From: an uncultured Anaerolineae bacterium
GTDB taxonomy: Bacteria; Chloroflexota; Anaerolineae; JACIWP01
Reading direction: 5' to 3'
Assembly (NCBI GenBank): GCA_938049385.1
Contig: CALIBQ010000038.1
Coordinates: forward strand, 33,974 to 97,973
DNA length: 64,000 bases
Shown here: piece after piece, positions 28,705 through 64,000 of the stretch
Numbering within the stretch: the first letter of the stretch is position 1
Layout: every line of letters begins with the position of its first letter
Position numbers and translations under genes: made by a program
The notes under the pieces: model-generated
Databases searched by the model: none
Told to the model about the DNA's origin: nothing
What the model saw: the letters and a program-made list of their open reading frames with translations, nothing else

Positions 28705-30027
28705 TCACAGCTTGACGATTTTCGCTCGCGGCGCCCGCACCCCGCGCAGGGCGTTGCGCGTGTCCACGATAAGGCCGGCGTTCTGCGCCACCCACTCCCA
28801 ATCGTAAGCGGAGTGGTCCGTGACAATGACGACGCAGTCCGCCTGCTGAAGCGCCTGCGCGGTCAAATCCACGGACCGCATGACCGCATCATCCAACTGG
28901 AGTTGGGGCACATGCGGGTCATGGTACGAGAGGTTCGCGCCGCGCAGGAGCAGTTCGCGCATAATGTCCAGCGCCGGCGATTCGCGGATATCGCCCACAT
29001 CCTTTTTATAGGCCGCGCCCAGTATCAACACCGAGGAGCCGCGCACCGGCTTGCGGGCATCGTTCAGCGCGGCGATAACCTTGTCCACCACGTAGTGCGG
29101 CATATGGGAGTTGATCTCGCCGGCCAGTTCGATGAAGCGCGCCGTGTAGTTCAGGGTGCGCAGTTTCCAGGCCAGATAATGGGGGTCCACCGGGATGCAG
29201 TGCCCGCCGAGGCCCGGCCCCGGCAGGAAGCGCATGAAGCCAAAGGGCTTGGTGGCGGCGGCGTCAATCACCTCCCATACGTCCAGCCCCAGTCGGTCGC
29301 ACATGATGGCGATCTCATTGACCAGGGCGATGTTGACGGCGCGAAAGGTGTTTTCCAGCAGTTTGGTCATCTCGGCGGCCGCCGGCGAGCTGACCGGCAC
29401 AATGGTCTCGATGATGGAACCGTAGAGCGCGCTGGCTACCTCCAGGCAGGCCGGCGTCATCCCCCCGATGACCTTGGGCGTGTTGCGGATGGTGTAGACC
29501 GGGTTGCCAGGGTCCACCCGTTCCGGCGAGAAGGCCAAGAAAATGTCCTCGCCGATGCGCAATCCGTTGGCCGCCAGGCGCGGGGCGATGATTTCCTCGG
29601 TGGAGCCGGGGTAGGTAGTGGATTCCAGGACGATGAGCTGGCCGCGCCGGCTCCGCTGGGAGATAGCGTCCGCGGCCTGCAGGATGTACGAGATGTCCGG
29701 GTCGCGGCTCTTGCCCAGCGGTGTGGGCACGCAGATGGAAATGGTGTCGAGTTGGGGAATCATGTCGTAAGAGCTGGTGGCCATGAGCCGGCGCCCCTCC
29801 ACCAACAGCCGCAGTCGCTCCGCCGGCACGTCCCCAATGTAGCTCTGGCCGGCGTTGATGGCCGATACCCGATGCGGGGCCAGATCAATGCCCAACACGG
29901 TAAAGCCGGCCTCGGCAAATTCCACCGCCAGTGGCAGGCCTACATATCCAAGGCCCACCACCCCCACGCGGGCTTCCTTCCGCCGGATGCGCTCCAGGAG
30001 AGCTTCCTTCACAGACGGAATAGACAT
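28705..30027 (-). CDS. nucleotide-sugar 6-dehydrogenase (UDP-N-acetyl-D-glucosamine/mannosamine dehydrogenase, WbpA/WecC-like)
   Basis: 440 aa; NAD-binding GVVGLGYVGLPLA; catalytic Cys region PGPGLGGHCIPVDPHYL; UDP-glucose/GDP-mannose dehydrogenase family C-terminal domain. Confidence 0.9.
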   Translation of the reverse strand: MSIPSVKEALLERIRRKEARVGVVGLGYVGLPLAVEFAEAGFTVLGIDLAPHRVSAINAGQSYIGDVPAERLRLLVEGRRLMATSSYDMIPQLDTISICVPTPLGKSRDPDISYILQAADAISQRSRRGQLIVLESTTYPGSTEEIIAPRLAANGLRIGEDIFLAFSPERVDPGNPVYTIRNTPKVIGGMTPACLEVASALYGSIIETIVPVSSPAAAEMTKLLENTFRAVNIALVNEIAIMCDRLGLDVWEVIDAAATKPFGFMRFLPGPGLGGHCIPVDPHYLAWKLRTLNYTARFIELAGEINSHMPHYVVDKVIAALNDARKPVRGSSVLILGAAYKKDVGDIRESPALDIMRELLLRGANLSYHDPHVPQLQLDDAVMRSVDLTAQALQQADCVVIVTDHSAYDWEWVAQNAGLIVDTRNALRGVRAPRAKIVKL

Positions 30028-30030
30028 GTC

Positions 30031-31044
30031 TCAATATCCCTCCTCCGGGTTGATTTCATTCAGCAGTGGCTCGCCAGCCAGATATCGGCGCAGGTTTTCT
30101 GCGAACAGACGGGAGGCGCGCTCCTCATAGCGGTCTGTGATGGCGGAGATATGGGGTGTGAGGATGACGTTGTCCAGCTCCCAGAGCGGGTGGTCCGCCG
30201 GCAGGGGTTCTTTGGAGAACACATCGAGGGCGGCGCCGGCGATCCACTTTTCCCGCAGGGCCTGGAGCAAGTCCTGCTCCACGATAATATCCCCGCGCGC
30301 CACATTGATAAGGAGTGCCGAGGGTTTCATGGCGCGCAGCGCGTCGGCGTTGATAAGGCCGCGGGTGGCCGGCGTCAGCGGGAGGGTCACCATCACATAG
30401 TCGCACTCACCCAGCATGCTGTGCAGTTCCTCCGGGCCGTACCAGCGTTCTGGAAGCCGACCTTCCGGGTCCCCCAATCCTGGCTCGATATAGCCGCGGT
30501 CGCGCCGGTCCTGCGGGTGGCGCTTGAGTGCCAGGATGCGCATGCCGAAGGCCGAGGCCAGCCGGGCGACCTCGCGGCCGATACTGCCGTACCCCACGAT
30601 GCCCAAGACAGCGTCGCGCAGTTCCAGACTGCGCAGGATGTTCCAGCGTCCTTTGGGCCATTCCCGCCGGCGCTGAAGCTCCAGCGTGGTCGGCAGGCGG
30701 CGCGCCCAGGCCAGCATGACGGCCATAACATATTCCGCCATGGGGCCGGCGTGGATGCCGCTGGTGGTGGTGATGTGGATGTGCCGGGCGGCCATGACCG
30801 GATGGCCGGCCAGGTGCTCCGCGCCGGCACTGGAAAGCTGAACCCAGCGCAGGCTGGGCACCTGTTCCAGCGAAGGGGGCAGTCCAAAGGTGTACAGCAC
30901 CTCAGCGCGCGCCAGCGGCTCGCCGATGGAAGCAAAATCCTGGGTAGGGATTTGCTCCACGTTCAGTTGGGGGGAGACGGAACGCAGTCGCTCGAGCTGG
31001 CTGTCGTTGAAGCGGCCGAGGCATAATACGTGAACGGTGTGCAT
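30031..31044 (-). CDS. D-isomer-specific 2-hydroxyacid dehydrogenase family protein (NAD-binding)
   Basis: 337 aa; Rossmann motif GIVGYGSIGREVARL, conserved RGDIIVEQDLLQAL...LDVFSKEP...NVILTPHIS catalytic region. Confidence 0.85.
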   Translation of the reverse strand: MHTVHVLCLGRFNDSQLERLRSVSPQLNVEQIPTQDFASIGEPLARAEVLYTFGLPPSLEQVPSLRWVQLSSAGAEHLAGHPVMAARHIHITTTSGIHAGPMAEYVMAVMLAWARRLPTTLELQRRREWPKGRWNILRSLELRDAVLGIVGYGSIGREVARLASAFGMRILALKRHPQDRRDRGYIEPGLGDPEGRLPERWYGPEELHSMLGECDYVMVTLPLTPATRGLINADALRAMKPSALLINVARGDIIVEQDLLQALREKWIAGAALDVFSKEPLPADHPLWELDNVILTPHISAITDRYEERASRLFAENLRRYLAGEPLLNEINPEEGY

Positions 31045-31122
31045 AGGGTGCTTCTCCTCCGGAAAGGTGATGGAGTGCAGAGAAGGTGTCTGGCGAAGGC
31101 CCAGCCGGCGTTGGAACCGGGA

Positions 31123-31806
31123 TCAACGGGCCGGCGGGGCATGGCTCTCCGGTGGGAGCACCAGACGGTAGCCCTGCCCGCGCACCGTCTGAAGATAGAC
31201 CGGGTGCTGGGGGACTGGCTCGATTTTCTTCCTCAGCCAGCAGACATGTACTTCCAGCGTGCGTGTATCTTTGACGTAATCGGTGTTCCAAATGGTGCGC
31301 ATAATCTCCCCGCGGGTGACGACCTCGCCGGCGCGCGCCACCAGCAGGGACAGCAGAGCGGCTTCCTTGGGCGTCAGATGGATGGTGTCCTCCCCTCGCA
31401 GGAGGAGGCGGTGCTTGGGATCGAAGGTTACATCTCCCAGCCGGACGAGATAGCGTGGGGGGATTTGCTGGAGGCGCCTGATGCGGTAGTAGAGCTTGCG
31501 GAAGGTGATGGGCGGCTCGAAATACGCGTCCACCGCCTGGGGGACGGATGAACATGTACGCGGCAGGGCGGCAATCAACCAGACATAGGGGTCTGAATGC
31601 CGCACCTTTTCGCACAGGGCTAATCCCTTTCCCAGGTCATCGGTGGTGTCGACAAAGGCATAGTCGGCATCAGCGTTAGCGGCCCATGCCACCATCTGCC
31701 GTTTGTTGCCGGTGGTCTGGACCGCGAAGCCATGCTGATCCAGCGCCTTCGCCAGTGACGAGGCCACTGCCCGATTGTGGGTGAAAATCAGCACCTTTTC
31801 CGACAT
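31123..31806 (-). CDS. OmpR/PhoB-family winged-helix regulator with degenerate (atypical) receiver domain
   Basis: C-terminal trans_reg_C (LTPKEAALLSLLVARAGEVVTRGEIMRTIW...LEVHVCWLRKKIE...VRGQGYRL); N-terminal receiver-like fold has LIFTHN instead of VVDDD and EPP instead of KP. Confidence 0.75.
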   Translation of the reverse strand: MSEKVLIFTHNRAVASSLAKALDQHGFAVQTTGNKRQMVAWAANADADYAFVDTTDDLGKGLALCEKVRHSDPYVWLIAALPRTCSSVPQAVDAYFEPPITFRKLYYRIRRLQQIPPRYLVRLGDVTFDPKHRLLLRGEDTIHLTPKEAALLSLLVARAGEVVTRGEIMRTIWNTDYVKDTRTLEVHVCWLRKKIEPVPQHPVYLQTVRGQGYRLVLPPESHAPPAR

Positions 31807-31976
31807 GGTGGGTATCCTGCGCGCTTCTTGACCGAACTTAAGTCAGGTGAAGCTAGCACCGGTTGGGGCTGCCGGCCTGGGAAGAAGAGGCACGTCCGTC
31901 ACGTGAATACCTGCTTTCCGCACCAACACACATACCATTATACCGGACGCGGCCGAATCCGGCAATATGTACCATC

Positions 31977-32137
31977 GAGGGTATGGGAAAAAGTCCAAAC
32001 ATGCAATCTGTGGAAGCGGCCTAGCGGCTGAAGCCACGGCAATAATTGCGAAGCCTGCCTGCGCAGACCGACTTCGCAGGCACACAGCCGCAGTTTCAAC
32101 TGCCAGGCGATGAGCCAATATCTTTTTCGACACCCTC
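31977..32137. repeat. MITE-like repeat copy with imperfect TIRs (GAGGGTATGGGAAAAAG ... CTTTTTCGACACCCTC)
   Basis: same orientation and near-identical core as copy at 13047 (GTCCAAACATGCAATCTGTGGAAGCGGCCTAGCGGCTGAAGCCACGGCAATAATTGCGAAGCCTGCCTGCGCAGACCGACTTCGCAGGCACACAGCCGCAGTTTCAACTGCCAGGCGATGAGCCAATAT). Confidence 0.75.
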
Positions 32138-32254
32138 ACTATCGGGCCATTTTCGCCGGCGCTTAATCTTCTTTTAATCCAGCCGTGATACACATGTAGC
32201 GGGTGTTATGCCCATACTTGAAAATCCTACCAATCTGAAGGAGCAAGGAGGGGT

Positions 32255-33445
32255 GTGCCTATGTGGCGACATCGTAGCCTGGCCTGGATCAGTTTGCTGG
32301 TCTTGCTGTCCTTGCTGGTAAGCCCGCTGGTTGTGCTGGCCCAGGGGGAGGCCGGCGCGTCCGCACCGTTCCGCATGTTCACCTCCTACCCGGCGCGCGA
32401 GGTGGCCAAGGGTGGGACGGCGACCTTCGACATCTCTCTGCTGGCCAACTCCGAACCGCAGATCGTCTTCCTGGAAGTGCAGGGACTGCCCGAAGGTTGG
32501 AAAGCCACCCTGCGCGGCGGGGGTGACGTCATCCGCGCGGCCTACGTGCAGACCGAGGATAAGACCTCTGTCTCGCTGAAGATCGAGGTGCCGGCGGAGG
32601 CCGCCCCGGACACCTACCGCTTCACACTGGCCGGCAAGAGCGATCGAGGGCAGGTGACGCTCCCGCTGGAACTGACCGTGAAGGAGAAGCTTCCCCCGAC
32701 CCTGACTTGGGAGGTCAAACTGCCCACCCTGCGGGGCAATCCGACTACCACTTTCCGCTATGATGCCACCCTGCGCAACGACGGCGGCGAGGACCTCAAC
32801 GTCAACCTGGTTTATGAAGCGCCGCAGGACTTCAAGGTGGTCTTCCGCCTGCTGGGGCAGGATGTGAGCAGTTTCCCCATCAAAGCCGGCGAATCCAAAT
32901 CCCTGACCATCGAAGTTGACCCGCCTGATACCATGCCGGCCGGCAAGTACGACATCACCCTGCGGGCGCGCGGCGGGGAGACTGAGGCCGAGACCAAGCT
33001 GACAGCGGACATCACGCCTAAACCCGGCAGTCCCGTGCTCAGCATCAGCGGTGCGGACGGCCGGCTCTCCGGCGATGCCTATGCCGGCAAGGAGAACACC
33101 CTCAAGATCGTGGTGTACAATACCGGCGATGCCGCGGCCGAGAAGGTGAAGATGAGCTCCTCGGAGCCAGCCGGCTGGACGGTCTCCTTTGACCCCGAGG
33201 AAATCGCCAGAATCCCCGCCGGCGAGCAGGCCGAGGTGAAAATGACCATCAAGCCGGCGGAGAAGGCCATTGCCGGCGATTACATGATCAGTATTACCGC
33301 CAAGCCGGAGAAGGAAAGCTCCAAGTCGGTGGACTTCCGCATTACCGTCCGCACCTCGACCTTGTGGGGCGTTGTCGGTGTGGCTCTGATCGCCGTCGCT
33401 GTGGGGGTGGTCGCCATCGCTGTCCTGCGCTTCGGCCGCCGCTGA
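32255..33445 (+). CDS. exported NEW3-domain (NPCBM-associated) repeat protein with C-terminal membrane anchor
   Basis: signal peptide; repeated beta-sandwich modules ([23 protein letters not shown]; [27 protein letters not shown]; [25 protein letters not shown]); C-terminal [29 protein letters not shown]; first gene of NEW3-ABC ATPase-ABC2 permease trio. Confidence 0.65.
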
Positions 33446-33464
33446 CGGCGGAAGGAGGGCGCCT

Positions 33465-34415
33465 ATGGACGAACTGGTGATCGAGACCGAGGGCCTGACC
33501 AAGCATTACAACGGGGTGGTGGCGGTGGAGGACCTGAACCTGCGGGTGCGCCGGCAGGAGGTCTTCGGCCTACTGGGCCCCAACGGTTCCGGCAAGACCA
33601 CCACCATCCTCATGCTCCTCGGGCTGACGGAGCCAACCGCCGGCTGGGTGCGTGTGCTGGGCCTGGACCCAGCCCGCCAGCCCCTCAGCGTCAAAGCGCG
33701 CGTCGGCTATATGCCTGACGAGGTGGGCTTTTACGAAGAGCTGACCGCTCGCGAGAACCTGGCCTACATCGCTCGGCTGAACGGCCTCTCCGGGCGCGCC
33801 GCCTATGAGCGCATCGAGGAAGCGCTGGGGCGGGTGGGCTTGCTGGAGGTGGCGGACCGCCCCGTCGCCACCTATTCCCACGGCATGAAGCGCCGGCTGG
33901 GCGTGGCCGACGTGCTCATCAAGAAACCCCAGCTCATCATTATGGATGAGCCTACCCAGGGCCTGGACCCGGAGGCGGCGCGCGAGTTCCTGCGCATCAT
34001 TCGAAGCCTCAAGGAGGAGGGCATCACCATCGTTCTTTCCTCCCATTTGCTCCATCAGGTGCAGGCGGTCTGTGACCGGGTGGGTCTGTTCCACAAAGGG
34101 CGTATGGTGCTGGAAGGGACGGTCACCGAGCTGGCGCGGAAGGTGCTGGGCACCGCCTACCACATCCAGCTCGAGGCAGAGGGCCAGTCGGAGAGGATTA
34201 TGGAGGCACTGCGCCGGCTCCCTGGCGTTACCGACGTGATTTGGGATAGCAAGCATCACTATCGGGTGGCGGCAGTGGAAGACCTGCGCACGGAAGCCGC
34301 CGGCGCCGTCATGTCCGCCGGTGGCCGGCTCCTCTCGCTCGAGCTGGACCGCCCTAGCTTGGACGACATCTATGCCCGCTACTTCGAGGAGGTGGAGCAT
34401 GTCCCAGCCGCGTGA
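33465..34415 (+). CDS. ABC transporter ATP-binding protein (ABC-2 type)
   Basis: Walker [10 protein letters not shown], signature SHGMKRRLG, Walker [13 protein letters not shown]. Confidence 0.9.
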
Positions 34416-35385
34416 GGAAGGCCGGCGTTTGCCGGCACGCGAAGGCTCTCCCTGGACGGGGTTGTGGGCAGTGGTCGCCAAGGAGATGGCTGACCATCTC
34501 ACCAGCGCGCGCATGCGCATCCTGGAAATCCTCATCGTACTGACCGCCGTCGGCACGGTGTACATGGCCATCCAGGAAATCCGCACCACCATCGCCCAGG
34601 ACCCCTTCCTGTTCCTGCGTCTGTTCACGACGTCGAAGGACCCTGTGCCGGCCTTCGTCGGTTTCCTGGGCTTCTTGATACCGCTCATCGCCATTGCCCT
34701 GGGCTTTGACAGCATCAACGGCGAGTTTAACCGCCGCACCATCTCTCGTGTGCTGGCCCAGCCCATTTACCGCGACGCGCTGTTGATGGGCAAGTTCCTG
34801 GCAGGCCTCTTCACCCTGACCATAGTGCTGACGGCCATCTGGCTGTTGATCATCGGGCTGGGGCTGATCACGCTGGGAGTGCCGCCCAGCCCGGAGGAGC
34901 TGGCGCGCGCCCTGTGCCTGCTTCTGCTGTCTATCTTCTACGGCGGCATCTGGCTGGCAGTGGCGATGGTCTTTTCGGTGGTGTTCCGCCAGCCGGCCAC
35001 GGCGGCATTAGCGGCTATCGCCATCTGGCTCTTCTTCCTGGTGTTCTGGGACATCTTGAGCAGTCTGCTGGCGTCTGCGCTCCTGCCCATCCGCTACGGC
35101 GCGATGGAGGAAATCCTGGCGCAGACCAAACTGGCCATGAACCTGGCGCGCATCTCGCCCAACACCCTGTTCAGCGAGGCCATCATCCCCATCCTCCAGC
35201 CCAACGTGCGCTCCCTGGGGCTGGTGCTGACCTGGCAGTTGCAGGGGGCCATTTTGGGCACGCCCCTGCCGCTGGGGGAGAGCCTAGTGCTCATCTGGCC
35301 GCATCTGACCGGCCTCATCGCCGGCACTATCCTCCTCTTCGCCCTGTCCTACATCCTCTTCCAGCGGCGGGAAATCCGCGTCTGA
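34399..35385 (+). CDS. ABC-2 family transporter permease
   Basis: ORF 34321..35385; start at MSQPREEG (ATG 34399, GGAGGTGGAGC RBS, 17-nt overlap with ATPase gene); 6 TM helices. Confidence 0.8.
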
Positions 35386-35392
35386 ACCTTCC

Positions 35393-35422
35393 GGGGCGGG
35401 CACCAGGCCCGCCCCAATTTTT
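35393..35422 (+). terminator. rho-independent terminator after ABC-2 permease (GGGGCGGGC-ACCA-GGCCCGCCCC + TTTTTTT)
   Basis: read directly. Confidence 0.7.
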
Positions 35423-35518
35423 TTGACATCCCCCAGGAAATGGATATGCTATGAAGGAGCCGGGAATGTCGGATGTAGGTCGGCATTGGAGTTTCGCCAG
35501 GCGCTTCCACCCCTTCCG

Positions 35519-35606
35519 TGCCACCTGCTCCCCTCCCTGCGTGCGGGGAGGGGGTGGGGGTGGGGCATTTCCCTCCCCGCGTGCGGGGAGGGGCCAGGGG
35601 TGGGGT
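35519..35606. repeat. tandem ~42-bp G-rich REP-like units, each a hairpin (CCCTCCC-TGCGTGCG-GGGAGGG) followed by GGTGGGGGTGGGG (G-quadruplex-capable)
   Basis: two direct copies read at 35519-35560 and 35563-35606 in the obg leader; related hairpin at 41615-41657. Confidence 0.5.
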
Positions 35607-35643
35607 AACTCCCTATATCACAAAACACACAGGGGATGGCATC

Positions 35644-36915
35644 GTGTTCCTCGACGAGGTAAAGATATTCGTGCAGGGCGGCAAAGGCGGCGACGGCTGT
35701 GTCAGCTTTCGCCGCGAAAAATTTGTGCCCTTCGGCGGGCCGGACGGCGGCAAGGGGGGCAAAGGGGGTGATGTATACCTGGAGGTTGACCCCAACCTGA
35801 ACACCCTCCTCCATTTCAAGCACCGCATTCACTGGAAAGCGGAGCGCGGCCAGCACGGCCGCGGCAAGAACCAGACCGGTGCGCAGGGCGAGGACCTGAT
35901 CATCCCGGTGCCGCCGGGGACCGTGGTCTATGATGTGGTGACGGGTGCCCTGCTGGGGGACCTGACCCGGCCGGGACAGCGCCTGCTGGTGGCGCGCGGC
36001 GGCAGGGGCGGGCGCGGCAACGCCTCTTTCGCTACACCCACTAACCAGGCTCCCCGCATCGCCGAAAAGGGGGAGCCGGGGGAGGAGCGCTGGCTGAGGC
36101 TGGAGTTGAAGCTGATCGCGGACGTGGGCATCGTGGGGAAGCCCAACGCCGGCAAGTCCACTCTCCTCTCTGTGGTCAGCGCGGCGCGCCCCAAGATCGC
36201 CGACTATCCCTTCACCACGCTAGAGCCGCACCTGGGCGTGGTGGAAATGGACCACCGCACCTTCGTCATGGCCGATATCCCGGGCCTCATCGAAGGGGCG
36301 CACGCCGGCGCCGGCCTGGGCCATCAGTTCCTGCGCCATGTCGAGCGCACCCGTCTGCTGGTGCACCTGGTTGACGGCACATCCGACGATCCCCTGCGCG
36401 ATTTCGAGCAGATCAACCGCGAGCTGGCGCTCTTCAGCGAGAAGCTGGCGGCCAAGCCTCAGCTTGTGGTGTTGAATAAAATTGACGTGCCGGAGGCGCG
36501 CGCCAAATGGCCGGCTCTGCGCGCCGCATGGGAAGAGCGCGGCTACCGTGCCGTGGCCATCTCCGCCGCCACGCGCGAGAACGTGCCGGCACTAGTGCGG
36601 ACGCTGTTCGAAATGCTGGAGAGCCTGCCGCGCGAGGAGGTCGAGCCGGCCGAGGAAGTGCCGGTCTTCGGACTGCCGCCCGACGAGGGGCATTTCGAGA
36701 TCGAGCGCGAAGAAGATGGCTGGCGGGTGCGCGGTGTGGCCATTGAGCGCGCTGCCGTCATGACCCGCTGGGACCTGCACGAATCGGCTATGCGCTTCCA
36801 GCGCATCCTGGACGCCCTGGGCATCTCCCAGGCCCTGCGGGAGGCCGGCGTGCAGGACGGTGATACCGTGCGCATCGGTGATGTGGAGCTGGAGTGGCAG
36901 GAATGGCAGGAGTAG
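35644..36915 (+). CDS. obg: GTPase Obg
   Basis: ORF 35518..36915; start assigned to GTG 35644 ([18 protein letters not shown]); Obg-fold glycine-rich N-domain ([33 protein letters not shown]), G1 [10 protein letters not shown]3 [10 protein letters not shown]-terminal OCT domain. Confidence 0.9.
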
Positions 36916-37559
36916 CGGCCCGCCGGCTGGGCATTCTGGGCGGCACCTTCGATCCCGTGCACTTTGGGCATCTGCTTCTGGCGGAGCAGGCGCGCCAGGC
37001 ACTGGAGCTACAGCAGGTGCTCTTCGTGCCGGCCGGCGTGCCGCCCCACAAGCTCGACGAACCCCATACCCCCACAGAGCACCGCCTGCGCATGCTGGAA
37101 CTGGCGCTGGCCGACAATCCCGCCTTCGCCATCTCCCGTGTCGACGTGGACCGCCCCGGACCGCATTATTCGGTGGACATGGTGCGCCTTATTGGAGAAA
37201 CCCAGGCACCGGGGACGGAGCTGTTCTTCCTCATGGGGATGGATTCGCTGGCCAACATCTTAAGCTGGCACCGTCCTGACCTGCTCATCCAGCTCTGTCT
37301 GCTGGCGGTGGCCCGCCGGCCAGGCTATACCTGCGACCTGGACGAACTGGAGCATCAGCTCCCGGGCGTCCGCGCCCGCATCCGCTTCTTCGACATGCCC
37401 CTGATGGGAATCTCCGGTGAGGACCTCCGCCAGCGCATCCGCCTCGGGCGCTCTATCCGCTACCTGACCCCGGAGCCGGTGCGCCGCTACATCGAGGAGC
37501 ACGGCCTCTATCGAGCCTCAGCGCAGTACCAAGGCAATGCCGGCCAGTGTCACGACTAG
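36894..37559 (+). CDS. nadD: nicotinate-nucleotide adenylyltransferase
   Basis: [16 protein letters not shown] (HxGH nucleotidyltransferase motif), SRVDV...YSVDMV; overlaps obg stop, classic obg-nadD arrangement; start 36894 or 36903. Confidence 0.85.
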
Positions 37560-38375
37560 GCCGATGATGGCGGCCGGCCCCGGCATTTCCCCCAACACAA
37601 GGATTCCCAGCAACACCCCGCCGGTCACCTCCTGGGTGGTGATGAGATTGGCATAGGCGGCGTGGGTGTGCCGCACGGCGGCGTTGTAAAGTGTATGGCC
37701 GGCGGCCATGGGGATCAGCCCCAAACCGATGACCGCCAGCACTTGTGGCCATCCCGGCGCAGAATGCGTCGTCGCGATGGCCAGCGGTGCCAGCCATAAT
37801 GCCGCCAGGCCGTAGACCAGGCCGGCATAGGTGAACAAGGGGTAGCGCTCGCGCTGGGACCTGCCGGCGATGGTGTACAGGGCGAACATCACCGCCGAGG
37901 CCAGCGCCAGCAGGTCGCCGATGATCATCTGCCGGCTCATCTGCGGCTCGAACCCCACCATGATGCCCAGGCCGGCCAGCGTCACCAGCATGCCGGCGTA
38001 CTGCCGCGGTTGGAGCGGCTCGTTCAGGCGCCAAGCCGACAACAGCGCCACCCAGATGGGCGCCGTGTATACCAGCGTCAGGGCGTGCGCCAGGGTGGTG
38101 TACAGGATGGCGGCCACATAAAAGACAAAGTGCGCGGCGGTGATGGCTCCGTACGCGATGAAGCGGGGCCATTCAGCGCGCGCCGGCCAGCGGTGCTCCC
38201 GCCGCAGAAAGCCCAACAGCAGGATGGCCGCCGAACCGACCACCAGCCGGCCACAGCTTATCTGATAGGTCGAAAGCGGGGCAGACAGGCGCACCAGGAT
38301 GGCGCTGGTGGAGAAAAAGAAGACGGCGGCGATGGCGTACAGCAGGCCGATGCGATCGTGTCCCAAGGTGCGCAC
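37518..38375 (-). CDS. EamA/DMT-family transporter
   Basis: 285 aa, 10 TM helices in two EamA repeats. Confidence 0.8.
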   Translation of the reverse strand: MRTLGHDRIGLLYAIAAVFFFSTSAILVRLSAPLSTYQISCGRLVVGSAAILLLGFLRREHRWPARAEWPRFIAYGAITAAHFVFYVAAILYTTLAHALTLVYTAPIWVALLSAWRLNEPLQPRQYAGMLVTLAGLGIMVGFEPQMSRQMIIGDLLALASAVMFALYTIAGRSQRERYPLFTYAGLVYGLAALWLAPLAIATTHSAPGWPQVLAVIGLGLIPMAAGHTLYNAAVRHTHAAYANLITTQEVTGGVLLGILVLGEMPGPAAIIGLVVTLAGIALVLR

Positions 38376-38399
38376 CCCTGTGCTGATGAGGCGAGGCCG

Positions 38400-38702
38400 T
38401 TACGCGGAAGGGCTGGCCGCCGGCGTAGGGGCCAGGGCCGGCGCCGGCGCGCTCGGTGTTGGCGTGCCCGTGGGCGTGGCGGTGGGGGCGGCCGGCGTTT
38501 CCATCAGCACAGCCGCCGGCGTCGGGGTCGGCGTGGGCGTAGGCGGCTCCGGCTGGGGGAGCGCGATCAGCACGGCGCTGATGACCATGGCCAGCCCGAC
38601 GATGACGGACAGGACGATGAAGTAGGTTTGCCGGCGGTCCGGCTGGCGAGATGCCGGCTGTTTCGCTGGTGCGCGTTTCTTCGACGGACTGCGGCGGCTC
38701 AC
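38400..38702 (-). CDS. small membrane protein, Pro/Thr/Ala-rich C-terminus (hypothetical)
   Basis: basic N-terminus, one TM helix (YFIVLSVIVGLAMVISAVLIAL), then low-complexity PTPTPTPAA region; coding status uncertain. Confidence 0.35.
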   Translation of the reverse strand: MSRRSPSKKRAPAKQPASRQPDRRQTYFIVLSVIVGLAMVISAVLIALPQPEPPTPTPTPTPAAVLMETPAAPTATPTGTPTPSAPAPALAPTPAASPSA

Positions 38703-38919
38703 GTTTTCCTCCGGAACACAGCTCTGCGGATTTGACCGCTATTATACCACAAGGGAGTGTGCCGGAGCGAATTACCGGCGTGCTTGCGCCCTGCCGTTTC
38801 GGCAGCCGCGTGCGTAAATGGTCCTGCTTCTACTGCCGCCGGCCGTGCGAAGCGCTTGACGGCAGGAATAGGAACCATGTGTGGTCAAGATATCCTCGCG
38901 AGGGCAAGGATGGGGCACA

Positions 38920-38993
38920 GTACCCCCGGCGCGATTCGAACGCGCAACCAACTGCTTAGAAGGCAGCTGCTCTGTCCGTTGAGCTACGGGGGC
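38920..38993 (-). tRNA. tRNA-Arg (anticodon TCT)
   Basis: minus-strand RNA GCCCCCGTAGCTCAACGGACAGAGCAGCTGCCTTCTAAGCAGTTGGTTGCGCGTTCGAATCGCGCCGGGGGTA; anticodon loop CTTCTAA; A20 and C35 Arg identity elements present. Confidence 0.8.
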
Positions 38994-58987: not shown

Positions 58988-60073
58988 TTATTCCTCCATA
59001 TCGATAATGTTTGCCTCGTTTTCAGAAGGCATTTTTTCTTCGGCATACAGGGAGCGGATAAGCTCGCTGAGCACGTCAGAGACGTAGCGCACGGCGGAGA
59101 TGTTGCGGGCGTAGGGCATGCGCATGGGGCCCAGCACACCCAAGAGGCCGGTAACGCGGTCGCACCAGCCGTAGCGGGAGAGCACCACACTGCAGGCGCT
59201 CAGCCCTTCCCAGCGGCCTTCTCCGCCGATGATGACCTGGATACTGCCCGATGTGGACGCCTCCCGCGAGAGCATGCTGAGCAGGTCGCGCTCTTCCAGG
59301 ACGCGGATGAGCTGGAGGCCGGCTTCGGGGTCGGAGAATTCGGGCGTCTCCAGCACATGGGCCAGGCCGTGGCGGTATACCTCGACACTGCCCTGGCGGT
59401 CGCTTTCCTCAATGAGGTCGATGACCAGGTCGCGGATGCCGGTTTCGAAGGCGTCGAGGGCGGCGGATTTGGCGCGAATCTGGCCGGCGGTCAGTCCCAC
59501 GAACAGGTCGTTGAACCTATTGGAGATGCGCTGGAGCTCCTCCTGGGGCTTGGCTTGGGCCAGGGAGAGCATGCGCTGCATGACGATGCCGCCCTGGAGC
59601 ACCAGCACCAGCAGGACCAAGGTGTCGCGGATGGAGATCAGCTCCAGGTGTTTGTATTGGCCGCGAGAGATGCGGGGGCTGGAGACCAGGGCCGCGCTGT
59701 GGGTGACGTGTGCCAGGACTGCCGCGGCGAGCTTGGCCCATTCTTCCAGGCTCATGCCGGCCTGGTGGAACTGATGGCGGATCATGATGCGCTCGCGTTC
59801 GGGGAGCTGGCTTTCCCCCATGAGGTGTTCGACGAAGAAGCGGTAGCCGGCCTCGGTGGGGACGCGGCCGGCGGAGGTATGGGGGTGCGTCAGGTAGCCC
59901 AGCTCCTCCAGGTAGGCCATTTCGTTGCGGATGGTGGCCGGGCTGACCCCCAGCCCGTACTGCTCCACGACGGTTTTGGAGCTGACCGGCTGAGCGGTCT
60001 GGATATATTGTTTGACGACTAGTCCGAGGACGGTCTTTTGTCGTTCGGTCAGTTCGGGTGTTGTCATAGCCAT
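58988..60073 (-). CDS. hrcA: heat-inducible transcription repressor HrcA
   Basis: N-terminal wHTH (LTERQKTVLGLVVKQYIQTAQPVSSKTVVE), HrcA C-domain; CIRCE operator upstream. Confidence 0.9.
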   Translation of the reverse strand: MAMTTPELTERQKTVLGLVVKQYIQTAQPVSSKTVVEQYGLGVSPATIRNEMAYLEELGYLTHPHTSAGRVPTEAGYRFFVEHLMGESQLPERERIMIRHQFHQAGMSLEEWAKLAAAVLAHVTHSAALVSSPRISRGQYKHLELISIRDTLVLLVLVLQGGIVMQRMLSLAQAKPQEELQRISNRFNDLFVGLTAGQIRAKSAALDAFETGIRDLVIDLIEESDRQGSVEVYRHGLAHVLETPEFSDPEAGLQLIRVLEERDLLSMLSREASTSGSIQVIIGGEGRWEGLSACSVVLSRYGWCDRVTGLLGVLGPMRMPYARNISAVRYVSDVLSELIRSLYAEEKMPSENEANIIDMEE

Positions 60074-60125
60074 TTGGGTGGTAGGGCCGGCGGGGCCGGC
60101 GTGCCGTGCAGTTATGTAATGGTTT

Positions 60126-60152
60126 TTAGCACTCTCTTCTCAAGAGTGCTAA
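60126..60152. promoter_or_regulatory. CIRCE operator (TTAGCACTC-N9-GAGTGCTAA), HrcA binding site
   Basis: perfect consensus inverted repeat read directly 53 nt upstream of hrcA start. Confidence 0.92.
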
Positions 60153-60164
60153 AATTCGAAATAT

Positions 60165-60193
60165 ATAATACCATTGTCTGGCGTGTCTGTCAA
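60165..60193 (-). promoter_or_regulatory. sigma70-type promoter of hrcA-grpE-dnaK-dnaJ operon (TTGACA-N17-TATTAT, minus strand), immediately upstream of CIRCE
   Basis: reverse complement reads cTTGACAgacacgccagacaatggTATTATatatttcgaaTTTTAGCACTC. Confidence 0.6.
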
Positions 60194-60228
60194 GAAACGC
60201 GTGCTGCGGCGGGGGGCCGGCGGGGGAA

Positions 60229-60257
60229 TTTGACGCGAGGTGTAAATTGTTTATAAT
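60229..60257 (+). promoter_or_regulatory. sigma70-type promoter for tRNA-Arg (TTGACG-N17-TATAAT)
   Basis: -35 60229-60234, -10 60252-60257, tRNA starts 7-8 nt downstream. Confidence 0.55.
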
Positions 60258-60264
60258 GGACAGC

Positions 60265-60337
60265 GCGCCCGTAGCTCAACGGACAGAGCGCCTGACTTCG
60301 AATCAGTAGGCTGGGAGTTCGAGTCTCCCCGGGCGCG
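60265..60337 (+). tRNA. tRNA-Arg (anticodon TCG)
   Basis: GCGCCCGTAGCTCAACGGACAGAGCGCCTGACTTCGAATCAGTAGGCTGGGAGTTCGAGTCTCCCCGGGCGCG; D-arm identical to the tRNA-Arg(TCT) at 38920; anticodon loop CTTCGAA; 27:43 is C-T mismatch; CCA not encoded. Confidence 0.7.
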
Positions 60338-60707
60338 CCTTATTTTACCTTGTACCGCCGTATGTAGTACCGCTCTGCCTGTATGCCCCTATATGTGGGC
60401 ATATCCCCCCAAAGGGCGCAGGACGCTTCCCTTGTGATATCCCAAAGATTGCTACACAGATTGCTGTCAGAACATGCGTTCTAAAACACAAAGCCCCGCC
60501 AGGTTTGCGCCTGACGGGGTCCTTGTATACAATACCCCTCGGTCAGGTGCTGTGCTCACCTGGCCCACGCCCCAGGGCGTCCCTTGCGCCGCTGGGGCAC
60601 TGTTTGTCTGGGGGTATTATAGCACCGCTCCCGAAAAAGTCAATACCCTTCGCGCGTCAGTTTCTGACGTCTTGCAGACGATATGCAACGCATGAGCGCG
60701 CAAATTC

Positions 60708-61112
60708 CTACAAACATGATCTCCGCCGGTAGGCCCGGCGCAGGGCGCGCTCCCAGTCCTCAAAGTCGCGCCAGTCCCTACAGGTGCGCACCAGCTCCAG
60801 GCGCACGGTGGGCGGGTCGGGGCGCGGATCGCCGCCCAGGTAGCGGAATACGTCGAAGGGCCCCTCGGGGAAGCCGGTGACGATGTACACGGGCACATAG
60901 GGGGCCAGGGCGTTGTAGGCGATGATTTCCGCAAAGGTGATGCGGTCGTTGGGGTGCTTGTAGTCCACCAGCGCCGCGATGCCGGGCGGGTCTTTCTCCA
61001 CCAGCATGAGATCAGCGTCCGCGGCGTAGAAGCGGGGGGATATGGCCTTGTGCGCCCGCTTGAAGCGGTCGCGCCAGGAACTGCCCTGCAGGGTGCGCTT
61101 GTCATCGTTCAT
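60708..61112 (-). CDS. hypothetical protein (island)
   Basis: ORF 60708..61145; start at MNDDKRT (ATG 61112, GGAGG RBS); overlaps upstream gene by 11 nt; contains DADLMLVEK segment. Confidence 0.5.
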   Translation of the reverse strand: MNDDKRTLQGSSWRDRFKRAHKAISPRFYAADADLMLVEKDPPGIAALVDYKHPNDRITFAEIIAYNALAPYVPVYIVTGFPEGPFDVFRYLGGDPRPDPPTVRLELVRTCRDWRDFEDWERALRRAYRRRSCL

Positions 61113-61413
61113 CCCGCGCCTCCAGCGCACCGTACCAGTCCTCAAAGTCCGCCAGGCGCATGATCACCAGCGCGTCGCTGTAGCGCTGGCCCAGCGCATG
61201 CAGGACAACGATGGGCAGGCGACCGTCCGCGCCCGACACCGCCTGCGCCACCGCCTCCACCAGCCACTTGGGGAGCGCTTTACGGGTCTTGACCTCCACC
61301 GCCAGCCAGTCCGAGACCACATCGGGCCCTGCGCGGCCCGTTATCGGTATACGCTGGCCCCCCAGGTGATCCGCTATCGCCCGTTCCGCTCGCTTCCAGG
61401 CCTTCTCAGCCAT
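61102..61413 (-). CDS. PD-(D/E)XK-fold nuclease family protein (VRR-NUC/Holliday-junction-resolvase-like)
   Basis: start at MAEKAWKRAE (ATG 61413, GGGGAG RBS); motif GRAGPDVVSDWLAVEVKTRK = PD-x7-EVK catalytic signature. Confidence 0.5.
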   Translation of the reverse strand: MAEKAWKRAERAIADHLGGQRIPITGRAGPDVVSDWLAVEVKTRKALPKWLVEAVAQAVSGADGRLPIVVLHALGQRYSDALVIMRLADFEDWYGALEARDER

Positions 61414-61630
61414 CGTGATGCTCCCCGCAGGCCCTGCAGTGCCCAGTGCTGTCATGGGCCACTATGAAATAAAAATGCGCCCCCGGGTGCTCCTGACGAC
61501 TGCGCGCCAGCAGTGCCTGGTAACAGGCGTCCGGCAGGCCGCGGTTGTGCAGGAGCAGTACAAACACCACTTCATCCTTGCCCTGCATACGGCGCAGTTT
61601 GCGCTCCAACTTGTGCAGTTTATCCCTCAT
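61406..61630 (-). CDS. small hypothetical protein (74 aa), translationally coupled to upstream HTH gene
   Basis: ATG 61630 preceded by GGAGGTGAGGC RBS and overlapping the stop of the HTH gene (ATGA-type overlap region C ATG AGG GAT AAA). Confidence 0.45.
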   Translation of the reverse strand: MRDKLHKLERKLRRMQGKDEVVFVLLLHNRGLPDACYQALLARSRQEHPGAHFYFIVAHDSTGHCRACGEHHDG

Positions 61631-62009
61631 GCCTCACCTCCAGTGCTTCAACTATGCGCTCCAGCTTCTCCACCCGCTGGGTCAGCTCCACCGCCTCATA
61701 GACCTGCAGGAGGCGCGACAGCACCGTGTCCGCCGCGCGCAGGCGCAGGCGTGCGTCATCAGCCCGCATGGAGGCCTCCAGCACGTCGCCCGCGCGCCCC
61801 GCCAGCGCCAGCAGGCGACTGCGCAGGTCTGCCAGGGCCTGTTCCTGCGCCTTACCAAGCGCCTCGCAGAACGCGGACTGCTTCAGCCAGCGGTAGAGCG
61901 TCCTGGGGGCAATGCCTGCGGCCCGGCAGGCCTCCCGCCTGCTCCCCGTGCTCACCAGCGCCTCCACCGCCCTCCTCTGCTTTGGTGTAATCGTATCCTT
62001 TTCGGTCAT
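61620..62009 (-). CDS. small helix-turn-helix DNA-binding protein (phage terminase-small-subunit/regulator-like)
   Basis: ORF 61620..62204; start at MTEKDTITPK (ATG 62009, GGGGAGGG RBS); HTH ACRAAGIAPRTLYRWLKQ; C-terminal coiled coil. Confidence 0.55.
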   Translation of the reverse strand: MTEKDTITPKQRRAVEALVSTGSRREACRAAGIAPRTLYRWLKQSAFCEALGKAQEQALADLRSRLLALAGRAGDVLEASMRADDARLRLRAADTVLSRLLQVYEAVELTQRVEKLERIVEALEVRHEG

Positions 62010-62060
62010 TCTTTGCCCTCCCCTACAGCGCGCCCTATCGCCACAGACCTCAAAGGGCAA

Positions 62061-62210
62061 GGAAGTGTTGAGAATGTTGAGAATCTTGAGAATTTCCAGA
62101 AAACTTTTTATTTTCGTTCCTCTTCTACTTCGCACTATACTAACAAAATTTCGACTTTTTCCCCAGATTCTCAATTTTCTCAACATTCTCAACAATCTCG
62201 ACAATCTTAC
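62061..62210. repeat. AT-rich (~35% GC) region flanked by inverted arrays of 9-bp iterons: 3x (G/C)TTGAGAAT left, 4-5x ATTCTCAA(T/C)-like right; candidate replication origin/operator array
   Basis: read directly: GTTGAGAAT 62067-62075, 62076-62084, CTTGAGAAT 62085-62093; ATTCTCAAT 62167-62175, TTTCTCAAC 62176-62184, ATTCTCAAC 62185-62193, AATCTCGAC 62194-62202; ~70-bp AT-rich core between. Confidence 0.6.
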
Positions 62211-62225
62211 GAGGTATCAGGCCAG

Positions 62226-63947
62226 CTAAGACCTCCAGATAGTCCAGAGAGTTCCATGCCCGAACCGCTCTTCTTGTGCCTTGATGCCCGCACAGCGCAA
62301 AGTGCCCGACAGCTCCCGCAGTCGTCTGGAGATGGCTTTGCCGCCGCCCATGTAGGGCAGGTCCGCACCTGCGTCCTGGAGCGCCTGCACGATCTGGGTA
62401 GCGGTGCCACGCAGTCCTTCAGGGGGCAGGTAGGCCATCAGCGCCTGGACCAGCGGGTCCAGGTCAACAACAGACAACTGCTGAGCCATACGCCAGGCAC
62501 GCAGGTAGTGGTCGCGCAGTTTCGCGTCCCCGTCCACTAGATGATGCAAGAGACGGGCGATGGTCTGGAAGCGGGATGGCAGTCCGCTGGGCGCCTCCCC
62601 GCCCAGCGTCCACCGTGCCGCATGGCTCGCAAGGTAGGCCAGCACCCCGCTCCGCCTGTCCAATACCTCGACCACCAGCGCCCCGTCATCAAGCCTGTTC
62701 TCATCGGGCAGATCACCGATGAAGATGGGGATGAGGCGCTCCAAAATGTCAGGGCGATCCGCAAAGCCAGCGGTTCTGGTCGTGATGACGATGCCCGCCT
62801 GAATAGGGAGACTCACCAGCTTGCTGTCGGTGTACAGCTTGCGAGCGGTGATGACGCCGCCGGTAACCGCCTGCGCCAGAGCGTCGTGGAACCAAGCGTC
62901 GGGCTCGGCGTCCAGGTTGTCCAGGACGCAGACAGGGCGCCCCGTCAGGGCGGTCTTGAAATCCCGCTCGCTCAGATGCCCATCCGACGCCTCGCCCAGA
63001 CCGCCCAGAAAGATTTTAGCGACCGCCCGTGCCGCAGTGGACTTACCCGAACCCTTGGCGCCGATGAAGGCCAGCGCTGGCAAAGGCCACGCGCCCGACA
63101 TGCGCGCCAAGAGCCAGGCGATGAGCAGGAGCTTCTGACAGACGACGTCGTACTCGGGCACCTCGGGCGGGGCCTCCAGCGGAGGCTGAAGAGCCCGCAG
63201 TTCCAGCGGATGGACGGGTTCCGCGCTGGGACACCATTCAGGCAGGACGGTATCACTAGCGAAGAGCACCCCATCCGCCCCGTTCTTGAGCAAGGTGAGC
63301 CTGCCATCTGGACCAGCACGCACCAGATGCCGCATCCCGCAGGAGATGTACAGCGCGTCATCCCGCCGCAGAACCCAGCGAGCGAGCCGAACACGCCTGC
63401 CCTCATTGAAGGCCCTTGCCTGGAGGTCGGAGACCACCCAGCGGTATATCGGTTCCGCGGCGTTGAGCCCCGCCTCGGCCAGCATGGCGCGGAAGGCCAG
63501 CGCCTCACCGTCCAGGCGCAGTACCGAACCGTCCTCGGCGATGACGTAGGGCGTCCAGGACTGCGGGTCGTCGGACGCGGTGTCCAGCAGGAGGCGATCC
63601 TTGCGGGCCAGGAGGTCACCGATGGCGCTGGAGACCGAACGCTTCACGTCGCGCGACGTGCGGCTGGCCAGTGTCTCGTGCACCCAGGGTGTCAGGTCCG
63701 CCAAGCTTTCCGCATCCGGCGGTGGATCCTCCGACCGTTCGGGCGTGCGCTCCGCTGATGGCGCGGCTGGGCGCAGGGGGATGACGCGCGGCTCCGCCAG
63801 CTTGGATGGTTCCTGGGGAGGCACCTTGGCCCCGTCCCTCTCCCAGGCGGGCAGGCGGTTCGATCGCAACGCCTCCTGACGATCCCGCTCCTGGCGAACC
63901 ACTGCTTTGGCCAGATCCAACCACTCTAAGGGCGTTTTCTGCATCAC
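62226..63947 (-). CDS. P-loop NTPase, phage/plasmid primase-helicase C-terminal-like (VirE/D5 family candidate)
   Basis: 573 aa; Walker A AFIGAKGSGKSTAA, Walker B-like PVCVLDNLD; GTG start overlapping stop of an upstream minus-strand ORF (GTGATG). Confidence 0.55.
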   Translation of the reverse strand: MMQKTPLEWLDLAKAVVRQERDRQEALRSNRLPAWERDGAKVPPQEPSKLAEPRVIPLRPAAPSAERTPERSEDPPPDAESLADLTPWVHETLASRTSRDVKRSVSSAIGDLLARKDRLLLDTASDDPQSWTPYVIAEDGSVLRLDGEALAFRAMLAEAGLNAAEPIYRWVVSDLQARAFNEGRRVRLARWVLRRDDALYISCGMRHLVRAGPDGRLTLLKNGADGVLFASDTVLPEWCPSAEPVHPLELRALQPPLEAPPEVPEYDVVCQKLLLIAWLLARMSGAWPLPALAFIGAKGSGKSTAARAVAKIFLGGLGEASDGHLSERDFKTALTGRPVCVLDNLDAEPDAWFHDALAQAVTGGVITARKLYTDSKLVSLPIQAGIVITTRTAGFADRPDILERLIPIFIGDLPDENRLDDGALVVEVLDRRSGVLAYLASHAARWTLGGEAPSGLPSRFQTIARLLHHLVDGDAKLRDHYLRAWRMAQQLSVVDLDPLVQALMAYLPPEGLRGTATQIVQALQDAGADLPYMGGGKAISRRLRELSGTLRCAGIKAQEERFGHGTLWTIWRS

Positions 63948-64000
63948 CGACCTCCCTGCCTCCGGCGCTTCTGCTCTTCCGCCAGGCGCTTCAGGCGCTC
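63944..64000 (-). CDS. C-terminal fragment of an upstream island gene (truncated by window end)
   Basis: minus-strand frame ...ERLKRLAEEQKRRRQGGR then TGA overlapping the start of the P-loop gene. Confidence 0.35.
   Translation of the reverse strand, partial: ERLKRLAEEQKRRRQGGR

Follow-up and report, generated by a model that had tools for sequence, protein, structure and literature searches.

A candidate mobile-element arm with a SaPI-type Rep-origin module beside tRNA-Arg(TCG) in an uncultured Anaerolineae bacterium

The 64,000-nt stretch of DNA analysed here (the window) comes from an uncultured Anaerolineae bacterium of the phylum Chloroflexota (GenBank assembly GCA_938049385.1, contig CALIBQ010000038.1, positions 33,974 to 97,973 of the forward strand). 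Near its right end, tRNA-Arg(TCG) is followed by about 3.65 kb of DNA (60351-64000), called the island below, which a sequence-only reading had described as a putative mobile element resembling phage-inducible chromosomal islands (PICIs). The island holds five complete open reading frames (ORFs); all are encoded on the - strand and point at the tRNA, from which they are separated by 368 bp (60340-60707). In the order of reading they encode a helicase-like protein (Rep), a helix-turn-helix (HTH) protein, a 74-aa protein (orf74), a nuclease and a 134-aa protein (orf134), and an origin-like site lies between the first two. The starts of orf74, the nuclease gene and orf134 overlap the preceding stops by 8-11 nt, and rep is coupled through GTGATG at 63947/63944 to a partial upstream ORF (63944-64000, - strand; 3' end ...ERLKRLAEEQKRRRQGGR followed by the stop), with which the element continues past the window. 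The unidirectional, overlapped gene train noted earlier is thus confirmed. The GC content at third codon positions (GC3) of the five complete ORFs is of the coding type (0.72-0.88, versus a host mean of 0.82). A short contig from Logan with an exact Rep match (L001, 1.8 kb) adds only 60 nt beyond 64000.

Rep (62226-63947, - strand) has 573 aa, or 572 aa from the ATG at 63944, which is the form found in public databases. In its AlphaFold model, built on nine homologues (pLDDT 80.1, pTM 0.72), the first ~75 residues are disordered and are followed by an alpha/beta N-terminal domain (~81-220), a P-loop ATPase (~267-410) and a helical C-terminal domain ending in a predicted winged helix (~515-571), where the model shows a helix-helix-beta-hairpin (residues 515-571). 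The best Foldseek match of the model is PriRep5 of the Staphylococcus aureus pathogenicity island (SaPI) SaPI5, with E 5e-10 and a target TM score of 0.63 over ~500 columns, and vaccinia D5 and the Rep proteins of SaPI5 and SaPI1 are among the top matches to solved structures. The Walker A motif GAKGSGKST is present. Within the family there is no variation at the Walker A lysine, the Walker B aspartate, an RxLYTD hairpin or a candidate arginine finger. All the marks of a superfamily 3 (SF3) helicase, i.e. an AAA+/P-loop core, Walker A, Walker B, B' hairpin, arginine finger and the SF3 fold, can be recognised in Rep.

Sequence searches gave less. Rep had no match among curated models (D5_N, Pox_D5, VirE and DUF5906 of Pfam, and NCBIfam), its Pfam matches RNA_helicase (E 0.014) and AAA_29 both lie below threshold, and a search against PDB sequences returned only generic P-loop/ABC matches. 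Since no curated sequence model matched, the assignment of Rep to the D5-like class of SF3 holds at the level of fold or superfamily only. According to the model, Rep is a stand-alone helicase-initiator of the SF3 (D5-like) class and is built in three tiers, as the SaPI Rep initiators are. The proposal that the 573-aa P-loop protein is of the phage or plasmid primase-helicase kind agrees with the matches of the model to vaccinia D5 and SaPI Rep.

An origin-like site (62059-62207) lies directly downstream of rep, and its first TTGAGAAT iteron array starts 19 nt after the rep stop codon. The left arm (~62059-62101) carries the heptamer TTGAGAA on the + strand and the right arm (~62159-62207) carries it on the - strand, both with a 9-nt period. 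The AT-rich spacer (62093-62167) is 75 nt long and has 33% GC, versus 64% for the window. Of the ten exact copies of TTGAGAA that the window contains, six are clustered at 62068-62192; each strand has three of them, spaced by exactly 9 nt, and the two sets face each other. The heptamer is expected 3.3 times per window, and none of 100 shuffles reached ten copies. Degenerate iterons lengthen both arms by one or two copies per side.

In the published SaPI origin, 6-12 iterons follow rep immediately and flank an AT-rich centre, those on its two sides pointing in opposite directions (PMC9371898). The site in the window has this layout: at least two iterons per side, opposite orientation, AT-rich centre and a position directly downstream of rep. 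The same architecture follows the homologous rep in each of three loci, the closest homologous ones with sequence beyond the gene. With the window Rep (iteron TTGAGAA) as the reference, the protein identities and iterons of these loci are 55% and TGCGCA (L004), 41% and CAAGAAT (L035), and 36% and GTGAAA (L005). All four origins have a 9-nt period and inverted arms; the spacer is 45 nt in L004 and ~64-90 nt in the others. Because the layout stays constant and the iteron sequence varies together with the protein encoded beside it, Rep and the site have the appearance of a cognate initiator/origin pair. In SaPI Rep, the winged helix of the C-terminal domain reads the iterons, and self-loading as two hexamers is thought likely (PMC9371898). 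The AT-rich iteron region that had been noticed after rep is therefore of a published type, and recurs in three other loci with different repeats.

The HTH protein (61620-62009, - strand; 129 aa) resembles the small terminase subunit, TerS. It matches six TerS families of PHROGs (best E 1.1e-9), and in Pfam it matches HTH_Tnp_1_2 above the cut-off (32.7 bits) and Sf6_terminase below it (8.7e-5). A homologue (E 2.6e-21) occupies the same place after the origin in L035, and in the viral contig L042 a 35%-identical relative is followed by one 119-aa ORF and then by a gene like that of the large terminase subunit, TerL, with a terminase nuclease domain. The AF2 model (pLDDT 81) combines a three-helix HTH with a pair of long helices. 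In the PDB it comes closest to 2AO9 (E 0.05, TM 0.44-0.50), which has been treated as a putative nonameric prophage TerS (PMC7672466). No match was found among PDB sequences, and the homologue search gave a single relative on a short contig. The earlier suggestion of a TerS- or regulator-like protein agrees with the PHROG families, the contexts in L035 and L042, and 2AO9. No large terminase gene adjoins the HTH gene, and neither TerL nor a capsid, tail or lysis gene was found between it and the tRNA.

The three remaining ORFs are small. Orf74 (61406-61630, - strand; 74 aa, GC3 0.72) overlaps the HTH gene by 11 nt and has a basic N-terminal helix and a C-terminal HCxxC motif; it is an orphan in all the libraries searched, Pfam and PHROGs among them, and the ORF that follows the HTH gene in L035 is a positional analogue only, without significant similarity. 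The nuclease (61102-61455, - strand) has 117 aa from 61455 or 103 aa from the ATG at 61413; the latter form, which is that of the database record, overlaps orf74 by 8 nt and is the '103-aa protein' of the sequence-only reading. It contains PDVVSDWLAVEVK with a visible GPD-x8-EVK motif, and matches two PHROGs families that carry the annotation Holliday junction resolvase, phrog_244 (E 4.5e-7) and phrog_2002 (E 0.0036). It thus combines a catalytic motif and a family profile of resolvase-like PD-(D/E)XK nucleases, as judged from its sequence, and the nuclease call made earlier stands. No match to it was found in Pfam, PDB sequences or IMG/VR. Orf134 (60708-61112, - strand; 134 aa, GC3 0.88), an orphan accessory gene at the tRNA-proximal end, overlaps the nuclease gene by 11 nt; it forms a singleton cluster and has no match in Pfam, PHROGs, NCBIfam, PADLOC, PDB sequences or IMG/VR. 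PADLOC found no defence system. In cultured phages, tblastn with the HTH protein and the nuclease and blastn with the 368-bp stretch gave no match.

The stretch of 368 bp between orf134 and the tRNA had been described as non-coding. It indeed has no convincing ORF, but it is not featureless, since it contains a candidate small-RNA unit (60485-60643, - strand) made up of a promoter, a structured transcript of ~126 nt (~60609-60485) and a terminator with a T tail. The promoter is sigma-70-like, with an extended -10 element and 11 of 12 consensus positions (TTGACT-16-(TG)TATAAT, 60643-60616, - strand), and the terminator-like hairpin (60519-60494, - strand) is the only one in 60000-64000. The 126-nt region folds at -67 kcal/mol (z = -4.6), and none of 200 shuffles was as stable. 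The RNA has no Rfam family, no plausible ORF and no relatives. A role as an antisense regulator of the island genes was considered and rejected, as the longest complementarity is 10 nt and no better than in shuffles. The unit is confined to island-specific DNA, and the RNA may be a regulatory RNA encoded by the element. Apart from spurious miRNA-type matches on the palindromic origin, the Rfam scan found the tRNA only.

The tRNA itself (60265-60339, + strand), predicted by ARAGORN and scored at 68.9 bits by the Rfam tRNA model, is a candidate integration target and would mark the att side with the intact tRNA. Its 3' end reads ...GAGTCTCCCCGGGCGCGCC(TTATTTTACCT), and its last 40 nt are identical in close relatives. 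A first search for an empty site, made through HrcA relatives at 66-80% identity, was uninformative because these lack a tRNA at this place altogether. The informative relatives are members of the same 90% HrcA cluster, i.e. metagenome contigs at ~88-90% nucleotide identity, to which a second look-up through the gene of glycoside hydrolase family 31 (GH31) was added. Six contigs (L043-L048) share the dnaK-grpE-hrcA-tRNA-Arg(TCG) arrangement, and in all six the blastn homology ends at window position 60350, 11 nt past the 3' end of the tRNA. The junction (60340-60350) is therefore the last DNA held in common with the relatives, and the DNA from ~60351 is island-specific.

Neither the island DNA nor the island proteins had a match in the ten relative loci (L043-L052). 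A tRNA island ends at the 3' end of a tRNA gene and is missing from close relatives; the locus shows both marks, and it follows that the island is strain-specific. The look-up in relatives that had been suggested thus gave ten loci without the island, and the view that these genes are unrelated to the flanking housekeeping genes, and are not core genes, is upheld by their absence there.

The comparison also disclosed an inversion. In the relatives, the tRNA(TCG) is followed by a block A with Obg, a nadD-like gene, EamA and an ABC transporter, which in the window lies at 29669-38791 and adjoins tRNA-Arg(TCT) (38920-38993). The order in the relatives is A - tRNA(TCG) - a 20.8-kb block B - tRNA(TCT) - C, whereas the order in the window is A - tRNA(TCT) - B inverted - tRNA(TCG) - island. 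The inverted block of ~21 kb runs from GH31 to dnaK-grpE-hrcA and has both of its ends at 3' ends of tRNA-Arg genes, the second break being 2 nt past that of tRNA(TCT); both tRNAs are intact. Both junctions of the inversion are found on one single relative contig of 121.6 kb. Homologous recombination within the two tRNA-Arg genes was rejected as its cause, since neither tRNA has exchanged its 3' 40 nt or its anticodon. Among the relatives, L043 (9039-9604) differs from L044 by a 566-nt indel beside the 3' end of tRNA-Arg(TCG), and a 67-nt piece of this indel sits in the window at 38819-38885, beside the other tRNA-Arg. The flanks of these tRNAs are a local hotspot of rearrangement.

The relatives of Rep show in what company such a protein occurs. 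A profile search of the Rep family yielded 23,671 clusters of 50% identity at E <= 0.001, of which 12,836 reach 1e-30; this very large family, to which P0001-P0155 belong, has no model in Pfam or NCBIfam for its core. Its members are either stand-alone (~500-650 aa) or fused at the N-terminus to primase-type domains, namely the DnaG-type Zn-ribbon/Toprim, Prim-Pol (PF09250, 5.5e-41), AEP and DUF3854. A C5 DNA methylase is also among the fusion partners, one member carries a family-A DNA polymerase (PolA) and an exonuclease, with the polymerase domain C-terminal to the core, and one relative (L022) has a weak DUF5906 match. Fusions to primases and to a polymerase are the context expected of a replicative helicase.

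The L005 prophage (MAG26, JAHLLH010000012.1) has the order int ... DUF5131 - sliding clamp - Rep - origin - TerS-like - gpA terminase, and 15 relatives of Rep lie in IMG/VR viral contigs of 10-108 kb. In an Actinosynnema locus (L002), a tyrosine integrase gene is located ~6.6 kb downstream of a distant homologue (P0005), and in two Verrucomicrobiota loci (L008 and L009) Rep is followed by a tyrosine integrase and a tRNA within 0.5-2.4 kb. These prophage, viral and integrase-bearing contexts show the Rep family as a replication module common to integrating phages and islands.

Some of these loci have features of their own. In L008 (6123-8888 and 12050-13397) and L009 (13850-15264), a primase-fused Rep, a tyrosine integrase and a tRNA occur together, and the 5' side of the tRNA faces the integrase, which is unusual. 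A 921-aa protein with a GHKL ATPase and a Toprim domain of the Topo VI-A/Spo11 type is encoded just upstream of Rep in L008. In the locus of the 55%-identical relative (L004, 3601-3954), a stand-alone DnaG-type primase with a CHC2 zinc ribbon (E 9e-14) follows the origin, and no TerS-like gene is found there; primase and helicase are therefore split around the origin in this locus. The IMG/VR contigs L024-L027, with a distant relative of Rep, carry arrays of 14-21 tRNA genes. Two of the tRNAs in L027 have the anticodon TTA, which would read the UAA stop codon, and this hints at stop-codon recoding in that phage.

Taken together, the boundary at the tRNA, the absence from close relatives and the Rep-origin module make it probable that a strain-specific mobile element, equipped with a Rep-origin module of the SaPI type, is integrated here, and that its tRNA-proximal arm starts at 60351 and runs on past 64000. 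On the model of SaPI Rep (PMC9371898), an integrase whose gene lies outside the window would excise the element; Rep would bind the iterons through its C-terminal winged helix, melt the AT-rich centre and load itself as two oppositely facing hexamers; and a separately encoded or host primase, together with a polymerase, would copy the circle.

Several observations weigh against this interpretation. The GC content of the island outside the origin equals that of the host, and in codon adaptation rep and the genes of the HTH protein and the nuclease score only ~2 standard deviations below the host genes. The comparison of composition with the host that had been suggested thus gave no difference in GC and a modest one in codon usage. 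An integrase adjoining the tRNA is the commoner arrangement, and its absence at the tRNA side here counts against the interpretation. No integrase, excisionase or regulator was seen in 60340-64000, and no second copy of the 3' end of tRNA-Arg(TCG) is found within the window; the mobility and the size of the element are for these reasons putative. A search of IMG/VR with the tRNA 3' end for attP gave one match, at an unrelated tRNA-Arg(TCT) locus. There is no primase in the visible part of the element, and Rep itself lacks a primase domain. The comparison with the relatives offers no clean empty site, as the block that separates the two tRNA-Arg genes lies the other way round with respect to the flanks, and cluster look-ups did not bear out the expectation that block C would come after the island on its contig. 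The TerS assignment leans on profile matches of 1e-9 and a weak structural match (E 0.05). Finally, the binding of the iterons by Rep is something that we infer by analogy.

The kind of mobile element may be considered separately. PICIs have a common plan, with integrase, regulator, primase-replicase, capsid morphogenesis genes, terS and accessory genes after terS (PMC10085698). The order of rep, origin, TerS-like gene, accessory genes and att in the window, without TerL, corresponds to the right-hand half of this plan. Of the primase-replicase module, the replicase/helicase part and the origin are present and no primase was seen. The visible ~3.65 kb carries neither structural nor lysis genes. 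PICI membership cannot be granted: what the visible arm shows of the plan is a replicase, an origin and a candidate terS with no TerL gene between it and the tRNA. The resemblance to PICIs, and only a resemblance had been claimed, is nevertheless upheld by the rep - origin - TerS-like order beside a tRNA. By analogy, the element may be a PICI-type phage satellite or hitcher, a tentative identification to which nearly as much speaks in favour as against; as in satellites of this type, TerS would then redirect the packaging of a helper phage. A bolder version, that the island represents the first recognisable lineage of PICI-type satellites in Chloroflexota, marked by a very large uncurated SF3 clade that reads 9-bp-phased inverted iterons, by TerS without TerL for the capture of a helper's capsids, and by a 126-nt regulatory RNA beside the att site with a role like that of the P4 CI RNA, and with an integrase that was perhaps the cause of the 21-kb inversion, is speculative and seems rather doubtful.

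The likeness to the SaPI/PICI elements (SaPI5 PriRep5, 7OLA/7OM0; SaPI1 Rep, 7PDS) lies in the three-tier SF3 helicase with N-terminal domain, ATPase and winged-helix C-terminal domain, in the origin immediately downstream of rep with opposed iterons around an AT-rich centre (PMC9371898), and in the TerS-like gene and accessory genes that follow the module towards the end of the element (PMC10085698). They also differ. The sequence identity of the window Rep to these proteins is only ~11-14%, and none of the Pfam or NCBIfam models of these families matched. The iterons in the window are 9-bp-phased heptamers or octamers, whereas those of SaPIs are penta- or hexanucleotides. Moreover, no primase gene or domain is visible in the element, and the host belongs to Chloroflexota (Anaerolineae) instead of Firmicutes or Proteobacteria.

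The D5-like primase-helicases (D5 of vaccinia virus and E5 of monkeypox virus (MPXV), C962R of African swine fever virus (ASFV), and the protein of phage NrS-1) and the alpha protein of phage P4 differ from the window Rep, which has no primase domain and whose first ~75 residues are disordered, and which is found, by contrast, in a bacterial chromosomal island. In the staphylococcal cassette chromosome mec (SCCmec), the helicases are Cch and Cch2, of which Cch is MCM-like (SF6) according to PMC9371898, versus SF3 here; no iteron origin directly after the Cch gene was found documented in the literature consulted. The L005 prophage has a homologous Rep core (36%), the same origin architecture and a TerS-like gene right after the origin. 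Its Rep, however, has 973 aa with an N-terminal primase-like region (NF005477/dnaG matches), and a gpA-type TerL follows, which is absent at that place in the window. IME1 of Dehalococcoidia belongs to the same phylum and is likewise tRNA-associated, with a primase-helicase and a terminal HTH protein. In contrast, it has a recombinase beside the tRNA, an archaeal-type primase-helicase and a pI-like ATPase, and measures ~23 kb; none of these features was matched in the window, where the genes stand in the reverse order with respect to the tRNA.

Among the alternatives to a satellite, a small integrative and replicative island of another kind, i.e. plasmid-like, mobilisable or a non-tailed virus such as IME1, with the HTH protein as a regulator, is somewhat unlikely. 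It would account for the relatives of Rep that lie within a few kb of a tyrosine integrase and have no structural genes among the ORFs examined (the context of L002 is known from Pfam calls for the whole locus, those of L008 and L009 from only three ORFs per locus), and for the top Pfam match of the HTH protein, which is a generic HTH family. IME1 of Chloroflexota is itself integrated at a tRNA and has its primase-helicase near one end, beside an HTH protein (bioRxiv 10.64898/2026.09.15.751708). Elements of the IME1 type are, however, defined by an XerCD-type tyrosine recombinase as the first coding sequence after the tRNA, a Cro/CI repressor as the last and a size of ~23 kb, whereas here orf134 and the nuclease come first. 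The six PHROG TerS families, a TerS as the best PDB match, and the relative just upstream of TerL in a viral contig, where one 119-aa ORF lies between the two, also speak against this alternative.

It is improbable that the island is one end of a complete temperate prophage, with the helicase-origin module as its own replicon, the HTH protein as its TerS or an early regulator and structural genes beyond 64000. The closest homologue with a long context does lie in a prophage (L005, 36%), in the order clamp - Rep - origin - TerS-like - TerL(gpA), the 15 relatives in IMG/VR viral contigs point to phages, and genes for Holliday junction resolvases are typical of phage early regions. TerL, however, follows the TerS-like gene directly in L005 and after one 119-aa ORF in L042, whereas three small ORFs and then the att/tRNA boundary follow it here. 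Since all visible genes are transcribed towards the boundary, the late genes of such a prophage would have their place before the replication module, on its upstream side, and that would be an uncommon arrangement.

A low probability is also given to a decayed remnant of a prophage or island, cut by the rearrangements that inverted the 21-kb block and no longer mobile or replicative. The region is certainly rearranged, with inversion ends at tRNA 3' ends and a 566-nt indel among the relatives, the tRNA side has no integrase and the GC content equals that of the host. All five ORFs, however, are intact and tightly coupled with coding-type GC3, Rep retains all the invariant catalytic residues of its helicase family, and six perfect iterons with exact spacing do not suggest drift; at 11 nt from the tRNA end, the junction has the position of an att site. 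The idea that these are ordinary core or housekeeping genes, with repeats that arose by chance or are regulatory, has only the host-like GC and GC3 in its favour and is refuted as far as the data allow by their absence from ten close-relative loci at ~88-90% nucleotide identity, by homologues that unrelated phyla carry in prophages, viral contigs and islands with an integrase, and by an iteron clustering far beyond chance.

The preferred interpretation, an integrated mobile element whose Rep-origin module is of the SaPI type, would bring a known kind of element into a further bacterial group and calls for no new kind of system. Good documentation of phage satellites and other helper-dependent islands is almost confined to Proteobacteria and Firmicutes (PMC10085698), and a rep-origin-TerS island in Anaerolineae would extend such elements to a phylum with poorly known mobile elements. 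The Rep/origin pair can be recognised by its letters alone, as a gene for a stand-alone SF3 helicase followed by inverted, 9-bp-phased iterons. Annotation of the Rep family, with its tens of thousands of members, would flag the replication modules of prophages, satellites and integrative islands in many phyla. The family would also supply natural pairs of protein and iteron specificity for the study of origin recognition by self-loading helicases.

On the other side of the junction, the tRNA-Arg(TCG) gene has its own promoter with 11 of 12 consensus positions at 60230-60257, and to its left hrcA, grpE and dnaK are encoded on the - strand. Upstream of hrcA-grpE-dnaK there are a perfect CIRCE operator (TTAGCACTC-N9-GAGTGCTAA) and another 11/12 promoter (60126-60152 and 60165-60193, - strand). 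Both the operator and the hrcA promoter are kept in an 80%-identity relative (L039), and the arrangement is that of normal heat-shock control. By chance, the spacer of this operator contains one of the four TTGAGAA copies that lie outside the origin.

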